Shown here piece by piece: positions 43,918 to 49,670 of a DNA stretch of 64,000 nucleotides. How positions within the stretch are numbered: position 1 is the first letter of the stretch; each line of letters opens with the position of its first letter. The stretch is from IMG/VR virus record IMGVR_UViG_3300047476_000704, positions 1 to 64,000 of that record. The stretch is one strand, 5' to 3'. The notes under the pieces are model-generated. The model did no database searches, was not told the origin of the DNA, and saw nothing but the letters and a program-made list of their open reading frames with translations. A program made the translations under genes and the position numbers. Origin of the DNA: a virus.

Positions 43918-43971
43918 ATTTACAAATATAACTATTTTATTTTTTAATTCCAAACTTTTATGGAATTATTT

Positions 43972-44978: not shown

Positions 44979-45010
44979 CAAATATACGAAACTTTTTTCA
45001 TATATCCAAA
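44979..45010 (-). promoter_or_regulatory. Bacteroidota housekeeping-sigma promoter (near-identical copies at 48273, 48513, 48651, 49690; related at 4369, 17936, 37632, 42843, 43923)
   Basis: Minus strand TTTG...N~20...TATATTTG, matching the TTTG / TAnnTTTG consensus. Confidence 0.85.
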
Positions 45011-45103: not shown

Positions 45104-45109
45104 ATATGG

Positions 45110-45183
45110 GGTGTTTAATGGGATTCGAACCCATACTATCAGTACCACAAACTGATGTGCTAACCATTAACACCATAAACAAC
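45110..45183 (-). tRNA. tRNA-His(GTG)
   Basis: tcagt-ttGTGgt-actga; G-1:C73. Confidence 0.92.
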
Positions 45184-45184
45184 G

Positions 45185-45256
45185 AGGTGAATATTGGATT
45201 CGAACCAATGTAAAAGGTTTTGCAGACCTCCACCTTACCAACTCGGTCAATTCACC
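45185..45256 (-). tRNA. tRNA-Cys(GCA)
   Basis: gaggt-ctGCAaa-acctt; U73. Confidence 0.93.
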
Positions 45257-45262
45257 ATTATG

Positions 45263-45334
45263 TAGTTCCATAGAGACTCGAACTCCAACTTTGACATCCG
45301 TAGTGTCAGGTGCTATCCATTACACCATAGAACC
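45263..45334 (-). tRNA. tRNA-Arg(ACG)
   Basis: tgaca-ctACGga-tgtca. Confidence 0.92.
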
Positions 45335-45338
45335 ATTG

Positions 45339-45409
45339 CACGTCCTGAAAGATTCGAACTTTCATCTGCGGTTTTGGAGACCGATATGCTACCATTGCAC
45401 CAAAGACAT
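45339..45409 (-). tRNA. tRNA-Trp(CCA)
   Basis: cggt-ctCCAaa-accg; G73. Confidence 0.9.
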
Positions 45410-45480
45410 GTATTTTATTTCCAAAGTAAAAAATTACCTTCAAAAAATTTTTCCAACTTCACCCAAAAGTTGAAAAAGTG

Positions 45481-45554
45481 TAGAGAAAATAGGACTCGAA
45501 CCTATAACCTTCTGCGTATCAGGCAAATGCTCTAACCAATTGAGCTATATCTCT
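45481..45554 (-). tRNA. tRNA-Ile(GAT)
   Basis: ttgc-ctGATac-gcag. Confidence 0.92.
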
Positions 45555-45560
45555 ATTCGG

Positions 45561-45633
45561 TAGGGTAAGCAGGACTCGAACCTACAACCTCACGCACCCA
45601 AAACGTGTAATCTAGCCATTGATATACTACCCT
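45561..45633 (-). tRNA. tRNA-Pro(TGG)
   Basis: cacgt-ttTGGgt-gcgtg. Confidence 0.92.
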
Positions 45634-45639
45634 ATATTG

Positions 45640-45712
45640 TGAACCCGTTGGGAATCGAACCCAAAACCCCTACATTAAAAGTGTAGTGCTCTACCAATTG
45701 AGCTACGAGTTC
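45640..45712 (-). tRNA. tRNA-Lys(TTT)
   Basis: ctaca-ctTTTaa-tgtag. Confidence 0.94.
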
Positions 45713-45714
45713 GT

Positions 45715-45791
45715 TGGTGGAGCAGACAGGTATCGAACCTGTTCCTCTGGATTTTCAGTCCAGCGCAATGCACCTCATCTGCCACTACTCC
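45715..45791 (-). tRNA. tRNA-Phe(GAA), CCA encoded
   Basis: ctgga-ctGAAaa-tccag. Confidence 0.93.
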
Positions 45792-45831
45792 TTCTAATCC
45801 GATTTTGATTTGTAGCATCGGGAACTACCTG

Positions 45832-45905
45832 TGTCCATAGTAGGATTCGAACCTACACAATCTGGTTTCTAAAACCAACACGGTTGCCAATTACGTCATA
45901 CGGAC
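45832..45905 (-). tRNA. tRNA with TAG anticodon (Leu) and short variable loop
   Basis: ttggt-ttTAGaa-accag, 5-nt variable loop, canonical T arm. Confidence 0.82.
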
Positions 45906-45913
45906 ATTTATTG

Positions 45914-45986
45914 TAGTGAGTGAGGGACTCGAACCCCCAACATCCGCCATGTAAAGACGGCGCTCTACCAATTGAGCTAACCCACT
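45914..45986 (-). tRNA. tRNA-Val(TAC)
   Basis: ccgtc-ttTACat-ggcgg. Confidence 0.94.
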
Positions 45987-46000
45987 GTTTCACCATTATG

Positions 46001-46010
46001 TCAAAGAACT
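46001..46010 (-). promoter_or_regulatory. boxA-like antitermination element (second copy 48208-48217)
   Basis: Minus strand AGTTCTTTGA in both places. Confidence 0.45.
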
Positions 46011-46018
46011 TATTCTTG

Positions 46019-46090
46019 CGTTGATGGTAGGATTCGAACCTACGACCAATAGATTAACAGTCTACTGCGCTACCACTGCGCCACATCAAC
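46019..46090 (-). tRNA. tRNA-Asn(GTT)
   Basis: gtaga-ctGTTaa-tctat; G73. Confidence 0.94.
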
Positions 46091-46104: not shown

Positions 46105-46136
46105 AAAAAAACCCCTAACTTTTTGAGTCAGGGGTT
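46105..46136 (-). terminator. Intrinsic terminator (attenuator) upstream of the tRNA array
   Basis: aacccctgact-caaaa-agttaggggtt 11-bp stem followed by a T-run; ends ~15 nt before tRNA-Asn. Confidence 0.88.
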
Positions 46137-46163
46137 GTTTTAATTTAAGTATGTAGTTTGGTC

Positions 46164-46307
46164 TTATCCCAAGTCTACATCGTTTAATATTGTTGCCCCT
46201 AACTGATTTTCAATTCCTTTCGAACTAAAATCACACACGCGATTGCCTGCCCACATCAAATTTGATGTCGGTTGATAAGCTATCGTATGCAGGTTAAGAG
46301 TTTTCAT
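46164..46307 (-). CDS. 47-aa putative leader peptide MKTLNLHTIAYQPTSNLMWAGNRVCDFSSKGIENQLGATILNDVDLG (not in ORF track)
   Basis: Translated by hand; A-rich sequence before ATG; all 20 amino acids by codon 33; carries a copy of the terminator 3' arm. Confidence 0.75.
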   Translation of the reverse strand: MKTLNLHTIAYQPTSNLMWAGNRVCDFSSKGIENQLGATILNDVDLG

Positions 46308-46350
46308 TTTCTTTTTTCTTTTAATATATATAAGTTTTTTTTATTTTAAG

Positions 46351-46911
46351 TTAAAAATCGTAATATCCTTTTACTTTTGTTATATTACAATCGCTATTCC
46401 AAGATATAATTGTTTTTACTACATCACTATCAACTCTAGGTGCTCTATGTAGAATAAAACTTGGGAATGTTAGAACATCTCCTTCTTTCACATCCATCTC
46501 AATTATTTCATCCTGATTTATTGGATTTAATAATTGTGTTTTTGGAGAACCTTCTGGTAAATCTAAATAATAAACATTAGTCCATTGGCATCCTAAATGA
46601 ACATGCCAACCATGTTCCGAACCTTTGTTGTATTGTTGAAACCAAATATTTCTTATTTTAATTTCATCATACCCAAGCTCATCAAATCTATGTTGTAATA
46701 GATTAGTTATTGGTTGCATTACTGGCTTCAAATAAAGCCGTTCAACTTCCCTACTTACATCCCAATCTGTTCTACTTATATCAGTATAATCATTTGGAAA
46801 TGTATATCTTGTAGATTCACATTCATTTATTAATTTCAATACCTCATCCTTTATTATTTCATGCTCTGGTAATTTGGAGATGATATATGGACATTGTATT
46901 GATTTAATCAT
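46351..46911 (-). CDS. 2OG-Fe(II) oxygenase-like protein
   Basis: WFQQY...HGWHVH...NVYYLD...TFPSFILH...ISWN. Confidence 0.8.
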   Translation of the reverse strand: MIKSIQCPYIISKLPEHEIIKDEVLKLINECESTRYTFPNDYTDISRTDWDVSREVERLYLKPVMQPITNLLQHRFDELGYDEIKIRNIWFQQYNKGSEHGWHVHLGCQWTNVYYLDLPEGSPKTQLLNPINQDEIIEMDVKEGDVLTFPSFILHRAPRVDSDVVKTIISWNSDCNITKVKGYYDF

Positions 46912-46922
46912 AATCTAATTTT

Positions 46923-46995
46923 TGGAGCGGAGGGATGGAATCGAACCACCTCATTGTACTGGAATGTACACATGCTACCGGAACACTTCCTCCGC
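46923..46995 (-). tRNA. Gly-type tRNA with 6-nt anticodon loop, CCA encoded
   Basis: TGTAC-ATTCCA-GTACA; G1-C72, C2-G71, U73. Confidence 0.72.
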
Positions 46996-47204
46996 TTATA
47001 ATTTAGAAAGATTTGTGGGGTGGCTCTTTCTAGTGGAACTAGCTACATTCCGTTTTTACCATTCAACTTTTATTCGTATCGTTGAAGTTATTTTATAGGT
47101 TAAACTCCCCACCTAAAAACTTGGTATTACTTTTTAATCTGATTTGTGGTTAAAGTGTAAAATCAATCTCGTTACCTTCACGCCTATTGAAAACCACTAC
47201 GAAG

Positions 47205-47275
47205 AGCGAAACAAAGGAATTGAACCCCCTCCTTCGACCTGGACGGCCGATGTGCTACCATTACACCAATCTCGC
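47205..47275 (-). tRNA. Gly-type tRNA(TCC) with G33
   Basis: TCGGC-CGTCCAG-GTCGA; U73; G-U-rich T stem. Confidence 0.72.
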
Positions 47276-47284
47276 TTATATTAT

Positions 47285-48120
47285 TACGGATGAGAATACT
47301 CACGTAAACGAACCAGCTTTTGTTGGATTATTGTTTCCCAACTTTTCCACTATCTTTTGGATAGTACCGATTCAATGCGGGTTAGTTAAGCCAACCACTC
47401 ATAAAGTTACAAACTACTCTCTCTTTACTCCGCTTCTTCTACTCTGCCGAACAGATTCACACTTGCGGTGTTAGAAGTTTTTCGAAAGAATCACAGACCT
47501 CTTGCGGAGGTATCGTGGCAGGGAACATCTCCCTACTATGTACGCACCTTTCGTTTGCAACTGGCGAACACTTTTGCTCTTTTTGTTTAAGATTTGCGTC
47601 AAATGCAAAATGAGTTTGGTTTGTAGATGGTTTCAAGTAGTGGTTCACCAACCTGCTCCGTTATCTTTTGAACAACAGAATACTGAACTACTCGATGTGT
47701 TATCCCTAACACCATACTTTAAGTCTGCTTCATAACTCCTACCTTGGTAGGTGAAGAGTAAGGATAATAACGACACCACTCGTACTTTATCTTACCTTTC
47801 GGTTTTAAGCAAACTCTAATATTGAATCACGCAATTGTTGAAAGGGATTAAGTTTCAGTTTCTCGCAATAACTCTATGGATTATTCTTATTGGTGTTCCC
47901 ACCTCAACTGAACTATCTACTTTAGCCCAGTCATTTCACCACCCTCTTTACAGTGTTACCCTCAATACTAAAGGTGAAATGATATTCCACTTGCCTACTC
48001 AAGCTCCTTTCGAAGCCGCAAATCACTTAAACCAAATGATTCACTTTATCCTACTTTCGTAGTTTATTTCACGACCATAGGCGGCCGATGTACACTATGT
48101 AGAACTAGTCTACTATGTGC
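47285..48120 (-). ncRNA. Large ornate ncRNA, GOLLD-like (~830 nt; ends approximate)
   Basis: No credible ORF, higher GC than flanks, many hairpins (three GAAA tetraloops, two CGCAA loops), embedded among tRNAs. Confidence 0.62.
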
Positions 48121-48321
48121 TAATGCTTTTAATAATAATTGAAATGTTGTACATTTTACGGGCGTCTTATTTACAATTAGTCTACTATCCCACAATTATT
48201 ATATTTCTCAAAGAACTTTTTATTTGAGTTACCGAGTATCTTTCATCACCTATTGGTCTCAAATCTATAATACAAATATACGAAACTTTTTCCATATATC
48301 AAAATTATTTTTACTTTTTTT

Positions 48322-49232: not shown

Positions 49233-49283
49233 ATCCACTATATGTTTGTATATAAATATAGTGGAGATGAAGAAAACGAATAG

Positions 49284-49670
49284 TGGAGATGGTGGTATTC
49301 GAAACCACGTCCAGATAAGTTTCTAATGTAAATCGTTCACAAGTTTATTCAATTTTTCTAAACTGAAAAAATATAGAGTTTCTATTTTGCCATTGCCACT
49401 CTCAAATGTGGAAGATTCACTTTAATAGGTAGAACCTCAAACGAGACCTCACTTCCGTTCACTTCTTTTTAAGTCCCACGAGTGATGCGGGATTGATTAG
49501 GCAGCTACTGCGTAATCGAATGAGTTCATCCATGCCATAGCATCTTCGAACGTCATTGTAGATAATTCTACGTCTGCACTTATTGTTTGATAGGTATTCA
49601 AAGGTTTCCATCTAACCTTACTTGCATCAATACAACCAGTCTTCATACCTGTCAAAAGCCGGTCATCCCC
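49284..49670 (-). ncRNA. ssrA: tmRNA; tag (A)ADVELSTMTFEDAMAWMNSFDYAVAA
   Basis: GGGGATG/CATCTCC acceptor with G3-U70, TTGAC near 5' end, GTGGT-TTCGAAT-ACCAC T arm, ATAAGT before GCA resume codon, YAVAA-stop. Confidence 0.93.

Follow-up and report, generated by a model that had tools for sequence, protein, structure and literature searches.

A candidate ribosome-mediated transcription attenuator in front of a phage tRNA gene block

It has long been asked why phages carry tRNA genes, and we know of essentially no account of how the expression of phage tRNAs is controlled. Where host defences cleave tRNAs, those encoded by the virus can rescue the infection (PMC10264068, PMC10802454). We analysed a stretch of 64,000 nucleotides (the window) from a freshwater phage, a 194,856-bp virus record with 33% G+C, in which a 47-codon open reading frame (ORF) and an intrinsic terminator precede a long array of tRNA genes. 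What are this ORF and this terminator doing there? A first-pass annotation of the sequence had read them as a leader-peptide attenuator that responds to a shortage of any charged tRNA. The leader frame, the mutually exclusive RNA pairings and the coupling to tRNA genes withstood the analysis reported here, and the sensing of all amino acids is only suggested by it.

The ORF is part of a minus-strand region rich in RNA genes. In the order of transcription, this region comprises a tmRNA gene (49281-49670; Rfam 83.8 bits), GOLLD RNA (47287-47695, with RNA cover up to ~48216; Rfam 293.6 bits) directly upstream of the tRNA region, a low-scoring (40.7 bits) and atypical tRNA-Gly (47204-47275), an odd tRNA-like gene (46923-46995), a 2OG-Fe(II) oxygenase-like gene (46351-46911), the 47-codon ORF with its stop codon (46164-46307), the terminator, and 23 tRNA genes. 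For one of the two atypical tRNA-like genes upstream of the leader, ARAGORN calls a two-base anticodon. The predicted tag of the phage tmRNA is unusually long (26 residues), and relatives have the same or a different tag. The oxygenase-like gene, which separates the odd tRNA from the leader, is found in only some relatives, and others retain a short remnant of its 3' end (e.g., L021 8010-8096); it thus looks like a recent insertion or deletion inside an RNA-gene operon. No further copies of the leader element were found in the 195-kb genome.

Parts of the region are present as contigs in four freshwater metatranscriptome runs. GOLLD (47287-48216) has a depth of ~10^3 to 10^4 in the four runs, which is far above its surroundings, and the leader has a depth of ~5. 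One contig (X3, depth ~5) runs from the leader through the terminator and 40 nt into the tRNA-Asn region; low-depth contigs of this kind show no ends, strand or levels, and may stem from DNA carry-over. A discrete 164-nt fragment (47019-47182), located between the odd tRNA and tRNA-Gly, was recovered from two metatranscriptome runs at depths of 756 and 400. Sequencing adapters flank it on both sides in X1 and on one side in X3. The fragment has no Rfam match, and its minus-strand fold is not better than that of shuffled sequences (z = 0.57).

Where transcription of the ORF and the tRNA genes might begin and end can be read from the promoters. Bacteroidota promoters of the -33/-7 type are enriched (20 versus 5.8 expected), and the host is therefore probably a member of the Bacteroidota, as the first-pass annotation had assumed. 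Six near-identical promoters of this type, each ~32 nt long, are found on the minus strand (at 43923, 44979, 48273, 48513, 48651, and 49690). They are dispersed through the RNA-gene region, with three in tandem upstream of GOLLD, and point to modular transcription units. Two reservations voiced earlier, that no canonical promoter lies directly upstream of the ORF and that internal promoters re-initiate, proved justified: there is no Bacteroidota-type promoter between 45010 and 48273, and the promoters at 44979 and 43923 are predicted to restart transcription, so that only the first tRNA block would be gated. The restriction of control to this block (45107-46090, minus strand) stands; the block had been counted as 12 tRNAs, but ARAGORN identifies 11 genes, in the order Asn, Val, Leu, Phe, Lys, Pro, Ile, Trp, Arg, Cys, and His. 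The tRNA-Asn gene (46018-46090) comes first, no Bacteroidota-type promoter lies between the terminator and the block, and the next such promoter (44979-45010, minus strand) marks the end of the block.

Upstream of the leader ATG there is a conserved AT-rich motif (46323-46332, minus strand) that is kept across differing upstream contexts, with a spacing to the ATG of 4 to 16 nt among relatives. The motif has no match to the Bacteroidota -33/-7 type and no repeat elsewhere in the genome; it may be the -10 element of a non-canonical promoter or a translation-initiation region. A repeated phage promoter motif upstream of the leader was rejected, as it is absent from the rest of the genome, and so was a sigma-70-type promoter directly upstream, where the sequence gives no more than a poor match with an 18-20-nt spacing.

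The terminator has the form described in the first-pass annotation, with a stem of 11 pairs (46136-46110, minus strand; 5 G-C), a 5-nt loop, and a run of 7 T. It starts 27 nt past the leader stop codon, ends 14-15 nt before tRNA-Asn, and is the sole strong minus-strand intrinsic terminator in the 41-50 kb region, which places a predicted intrinsic terminator between the leader ORF and the tRNA genes. The duplication of one of its arms within the ORF was likewise as annotated: AGTTAGGGG is found in codons 35-37 (46196-46204) and is repeated as the terminator 3' arm, and either copy can pair with the terminator 5' arm, CCCCTGACT, with one G-U pair. We refer to the in-ORF copy as B1 (segment 2), to the terminator 5' arm as C (segment 3; 46126-46136), and to the terminator 3' arm plus the U-run as B2 (segment 4; 46105-46120), all on the minus strand. 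A fourth pairing segment had been overlooked. This segment, A (segment 1; codons 3-5; 46293-46300, minus strand), pairs with B1 in the MFE structure, where it closes a domain that we call P1, and it completes the 1:2 / 2:3 / 3:4 arrangement of an attenuator.

The RNA between these segments is predicted to be highly structured. The 255-nt leader folds with -62.5 kcal/mol, compared with -37.7 +/- 4.2 kcal/mol for shuffled sequences (z = -5.9). Codons 6-25 form P2 (46235-46290, minus strand), a long imperfect hairpin with three apical compensatory pairs among seven haplotypes and additional covariation in the short class of relatives, and codons 26-34 form P3 (46204-46233, minus strand), a hairpin that is missing from relatives with 29-30 codons. 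Another predicted hairpin (46151-46180, minus strand) has the stop codon in its loop. The extra hairpins noted in the first-pass annotation are thus all predicted here; they span codons 13-18, codons 26-34, and the stop codon, and the first of them shows compensatory changes in relatives.

We collected relatives of the element by a protein search, by pattern scans of viral and metagenome contigs, and from loci anchored on a neighbouring kinase-like gene. The protein search returned the same 47-residue ORF at 81-98% identity, and all approaches together yielded ~90 related elements, which represent 59 distinct sequences and 44 distinct leader peptides. By leader length the family, which is abundant in freshwater metagenomes, falls into eight classes (29, 30, 38, 39, 47, 51, 52, or 53 codons). 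No relatives were found among the phages in GenBank, whose matches were confined to the tRNA-Asn gene and the oxygenase gene. We discarded loci anchored on the 2OG oxygenase, as the relatives there have no nearby tRNAs. Also excluded were false positives of the pattern scan, namely a CRISPR repeat (L135, L157), a coding region (L112 and others), L152, and L171; L135 and L157 contain a CRISPR-like array whose repeat happens to include the terminator-arm word and is unrelated to the leader.

Upstream of the element the relatives differ: some have the oxygenase gene there, others a tRNA or a further terminated RNA. Downstream, ARAGORN identifies a tRNA gene 1-26 nt past the U-run in 87 of 93 elements (Asn in 80, Tyr in 3, Gly in 3, and Ile in 1), a distance that leaves no room for a promoter between terminator and tRNA. 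A decayed tRNA-Asn follows the U-run in three more elements (L149, L160, and L177), and in the last three the contig ends 8-64 nt past the U-run, the 64 nt of L019 being without a tRNA. In the three decayed cases, leader and terminator are intact, and the tRNA has a recognisable anticodon loop with a broken T arm. These data support a coupling of the element to the first tRNA of the array wherever the downstream DNA is readable.

The pairing segments can form two mutually exclusive arrangements: A:B1 together with C:B2, which is the terminator, versus B1:C, which is the antiterminator. All of these pairings can be formed in every length class, and the earlier proposal that the in-ORF arm copy acts as antiterminator partner is supported in this respect. 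At its sixth base, B1 has G in the 47-codon class and A in every other class, and the partners of this base in A and in C are C in the 47-codon class and U elsewhere. B2 keeps G outside the 47-codon class, where it pairs as G-U, and B1 and B2 are identical only in the 47-codon class. This three-way match of A, B1, and C is what alternating pairing predicts, and supports it as a single evolutionary event. In the short class (34 sequences), 89.7% of the cells of the terminated state are paired, and sliding the partners leaves no more than 52%. All 34 sequences can form B1:C, and their terminator is 99.7% paired; in P1, six of nine columns pair in at least 30 of the 34 sequences and the weakest pairs in 22, all with search patterns that fixed B1 and B2 and left only A and C free to vary. 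The terminated and antiterminated folds are a few kcal/mol apart, and the terminator hairpin is stronger than the antiterminator. The same is true of trp.

Is the ORF translated? In public data it is annotated as a hypothetical protein, and no Pfam family exists for the peptide. The frame itself is kept in relatives: all 49 distinct ORFs read through in frame 0 and are closed in both frame +1 and frame +2, a frame-blind nucleotide alignment has ten distinct gap runs that are all multiples of three, and the conserved start and stop codons are in frame with each other in all length classes. Stop codons would arise from 5.2% of random single substitutions, and one stop variant (L147) was seen among at least 185 substitutions. 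L147, a metagenome contig of the 47-codon class in which codon 19 has turned from TGG into TAG alongside two further changes, is the sole frame-breaking case among ~93 elements and represents a defective allele or a sequencing error. The substitution pattern does not single out the ORF frame (pN/pS is 0.61 in this frame versus 0.63 in frame +2), and we rejected pN/pS as coding evidence because it is not frame-specific. Substitutions are evenly distributed over codon positions in the 30-codon class, most changes are non-synonymous in the 47-codon class (three of them are compensatory pairs within the hairpin), and only the 53-codon class has a mild synonymous excess, with 35 of 73 minimal changes at third positions. 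Weak amino-acid constraint is expected of a leader peptide, for which the frame matters and the product does not. On comparative grounds, namely the frame being kept through ten codon-sized indels and the avoidance of stop codons, the leader ORF is probably translated, although pN/pS does not set its frame apart.

The amino-acid composition of the leader had suggested that it reports on all amino acids at once. We reproduced the counts behind this idea (19 residue types by codon 27, 20 by codon 33, and 35 distinct codons), as well as the abundance of G/C-ending codons (third-position G/C of 0.36 versus 0.22 in the long ORFs of the phage). The proposed check of 33-codon windows gave all 20 types in 0.03% of windows from the phage's own proteins and 0.1% of random codon strings, for a cut-off that was chosen post hoc. 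With random codon strings of the leader's base composition, 20 types in 47 codons are reached in 2.9% of strings and in 1.0% of own-protein windows; the corresponding values are 0.5% and 0.2% for 38 or 39 codons, and 6% (6.2% for 53 codons) and 2% for 51-53 codons. Leaders of 29-30 codons have a median of 17 types, versus means of 13.6 in own-protein windows and 14.9 in random codons. Residue diversity is in the upper tail for every length class, which is suggestive of a multivalent reading of the leader.

The composition of the leader can also be compared with that of the tRNA array behind it. Leaders lack an amino acid served by the first tRNA block in 4 of 376 cells versus 13.8 +/- 2.4 after permutation within length classes, and one served by the whole array in 7 of 374 versus 15.5. 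Three leader types without Gln and Pro codons all precede arrays that lack tRNA-Gln and tRNA-Pro, and none of the arrays with tRNA-Gln and tRNA-Pro (~20 types) is found behind such a leader. With phylogenetic control there are ~6.5 concordant sister pairs versus 1 discordant pair and 21.5 unchanged (p ~0.07), and the match between leader and array, significant only without this control, points weakly to a shared composition. Colinearity between the order of residues in the leader and that of the tRNAs was rejected (LCS of 10 in the window versus 10.1 expected); it is nominal in only a few members of the short class.

Other observations speak against a leader that must contain all twenty amino acids. 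The first-pass annotation had proposed to look for homologous leaders with conserved diversity and covarying arms; the relatives have duplicated, covarying arms, by way of the one three-way event described above, but the short leaders contain only 14-19 residue types. Even among the five distinct 47-codon peptides, Glu occurs only in the window's own type and the other four have 19 types; the arrays of these Glu-less types carry tRNA-Glu where they are long enough to judge. Diversity in the short class is 394 versus 389.6 expected from random mutational walks off the consensus, and we rejected active maintenance of diversity for this class on the basis of the simulation. In the 51-53-codon class, the random walks are only suggestive of maintenance, with a consensus that is artificial there. 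The leader has no tandem or conserved codon runs (35 distinct codons in 47; 14-20 residue types), and with one codon per amino acid a single shortage should evoke a weak response. Moreover, about half of the codons in the sensing zone specify amino acids whose tRNAs are in later, separately promoted blocks. What is left of the pan-amino-acid sensor is the high diversity and the small number of missing tRNA-block amino acids, without conservation of all twenty; a sensor of all twenty amino acids is thus not established, and a sensor of many tRNAs or of decoding speed is plausible.

We consider it fairly probable that the element is a ribosome-mediated (leader-peptide) transcription attenuator that gates the first phage tRNA block, and that the phage would probably make the tRNAs of this block when ribosomes read slowly. 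The sequence features, the kept frame, the conserved and covarying structure, and the constant place ahead of tRNA arrays are observed, and translation, termination, ribosome geometry, and the nature of the signal are inferred. Transcription would enter from upstream, either from the nearest canonical promoter (48273) by reading through GOLLD, tRNA-Gly, and the 2OG-oxygenase gene, or from a weak, unrecognised promoter adjoining the ORF. With no ribosome on the leader, A (codons 3-5) would pair with B1 (codons 35-37), the C:B2 terminator would then form, and transcription would stop 14 nt before tRNA-Asn. A ribosome that is delayed before B1, with A-site codons 2 to ~31, would hold A and B1 apart, so that B1 could capture C on its emergence, the terminator would be blocked, and the 11 tRNA genes would be transcribed. 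A ribosome that moves smoothly would cover or pass B1 while C and B2 are made, or A:B1 would re-form behind it, and in either case the terminator would form. The position of the stop codon bears on this last step. In the 29-39 and 51-53-codon classes it follows B1 at 14 nt, at the edge of a ribosome footprint, so a terminating ribosome would abut B1 in all but the 47-codon class of the window, where the distance is 29 nt, B1 would be left unmasked, and the model consequently needs A:B1 to re-form behind the ribosome.

As segment 1 lies right after the start codon, nearly the whole ORF would be a sensing stretch. This stretch contains single codons for 19 amino acids and no run of any one of them. 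What it senses is therefore most likely not one amino acid but how fast decoding proceeds overall, or a shortage of any one among many tRNAs. A more specific version, a roster sensor in which selection keeps the codon set of the leader matched to the phage's tRNA species, is tentative and in our view rather doubtful. If it is true, the loss or cleavage of almost any host tRNA, e.g., by anticodon nucleases or tRNA-targeting defence systems, would slow the leader ribosome and switch replacement tRNAs on, and abundant phage tRNAs would shut the block off again by negative feedback.

Read-through could instead be tied to ribosome loading or to nascent-peptide arrest, that is, to a translation-coupled gate that senses no shortage, which we regard as unlikely. 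In its loading variant, the gate would follow the timing of infection or host shut-off. In either variant, the residue diversity would be a by-product of RNA-structure constraints acting on a G+C-richer sequence. Such a gate would account for the absence of repeated regulatory codons, and it agrees with random-codon odds of 20 types that are not extreme (2.9% in 47 and 6.2% in 53 codons), with diversity in the short class that is not actively maintained, and with a phylogenetically controlled test that is not significant. The conserved N- and C-terminal motifs of the peptide would suit arrest, although RNA constraints could explain them too, since the codons for the peptide ends share sequence with segments A and B1. 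Unlike in known arrest peptides, the middle part is free in length and sequence, and a gate without sensing does not predict that diversity is high in all length classes (20 types even in 38 and 39 codons, at 0.2-0.5%), that leaders almost always include the amino acids of the tRNA block, or that the loss of Gln and Pro codons coincides with that of tRNA-Gln and tRNA-Pro.

The other readings do without a regulatory role for translation of the ORF. An ordinary small-protein gene with its own terminator would yield a 47-residue product with a function of its own; the terminator would merely end the upstream operon, the tRNAs would be made by constitutive leakage, and the alternative pairing would be incidental. 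The conservation of the ORF, its public annotation as a hypothetical protein, and the mild synonymous excess in the 53-codon class (35 of 73 changes at third positions) are in keeping with this, but a protein that varies from 29 to 53 residues, lacks its entire middle segment in some relatives, has a pN/pS of ~0.6 that is not frame-specific, and belongs to no Pfam family makes it improbable, and it leaves two things unexplained: that the arm is duplicated, with changes in A and C to match, and that the element always lies 1-26 nt ahead of the first tRNA or of a decayed tRNA-Asn wherever the downstream DNA is readable. The ORF would be accidental if the element were a structured RNA without coding function, such as an sRNA or a riboswitch-like junction closed by P1 that binds a ligand or a tRNA. 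We initially favoured a pure non-coding RNA on the basis of the compensatory and mostly non-synonymous changes of the 47-codon class, and the strong fold (z = -5.9) also speaks for this reading, as does the layout typical of riboswitches, in which P1 closes a two-hairpin junction and its 3' strand overlaps the antiterminator. The reading was dropped because divergent relatives keep the frame, through ten codon-sized indels and with avoidance of stop codons; in addition, the content of the junction is not conserved (P3 is missing in the short class), and a cmscan of the leader against Rfam found nothing at the gathering threshold (the best match was BTnc005 with 21.4 bits versus 174.8 and E = 0.08). 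We now regard it as highly improbable.

The attenuator reading places the element next to several known systems. Leader attenuators of amino-acid operons include trpL, hisL, leuL, thrL, and pheL of enterobacteria, and comparative genomics has extended them to other phyla. Like these, the phage element has a short leader ORF, for which translation is inferred here, and four segments that form 1:2, a 2:3 antiterminator, and a 3:4 intrinsic terminator; the position of the ribosome would likewise set the fold, and absence of translation is proposed to lead to termination. Unlike them, it would control phage tRNA genes and not biosynthetic enzymes, it has single codons for 14-20 amino acids and no one-codon run, its segment 1 is located at codons 3-5 with the stop codon after segment 2 and not before it, and it lies inside a long RNA-gene operon. 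The multivalent attenuators of ilvGMEDA (Ile/Val/Leu) and thr (Thr/Ile) similarly address several amino acids through mixed codons in one leader, but they repeat each regulatory codon several times and sense two to three amino acids, whereas the phage leader has most of its 14-20 residue types once to three times.

With T-box riboswitches, the element would share a link between the state of tRNA supply and the choice of terminator or antiterminator. It has no specifier loop and no T-box sequence, and cmscan found no T-box match up to an E-value of 1; sensing in the phage element would go through the ribosome, and it precedes tRNA genes, whereas T-boxes control synthetase and amino-acid genes and each sense one tRNA. 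In the leaders of ermC-type and ARE-ABCF (msr/mef) genes, a ribosome stalled on a short ORF remodels the RNA and relieves a terminator (PMC4335068). Like these leaders, the phage element would be a sensor of translation trouble and not of one amino acid; unlike them, it has a peptide middle that varies and implies no drug, whereas they need a drug and a specific nascent peptide. Full-text literature searches returned no account of phage or cellular tRNA genes being controlled by a leader peptide.

The proposed element is compact (~200 nt) and directly testable. If it acts as suggested, classical attenuation, known from amino-acid and synthetase genes, would reach tRNA genes themselves, and a phage with such a ribosome-read switch ahead of its tRNA array would gauge decoding capacity and supply tRNAs on demand.
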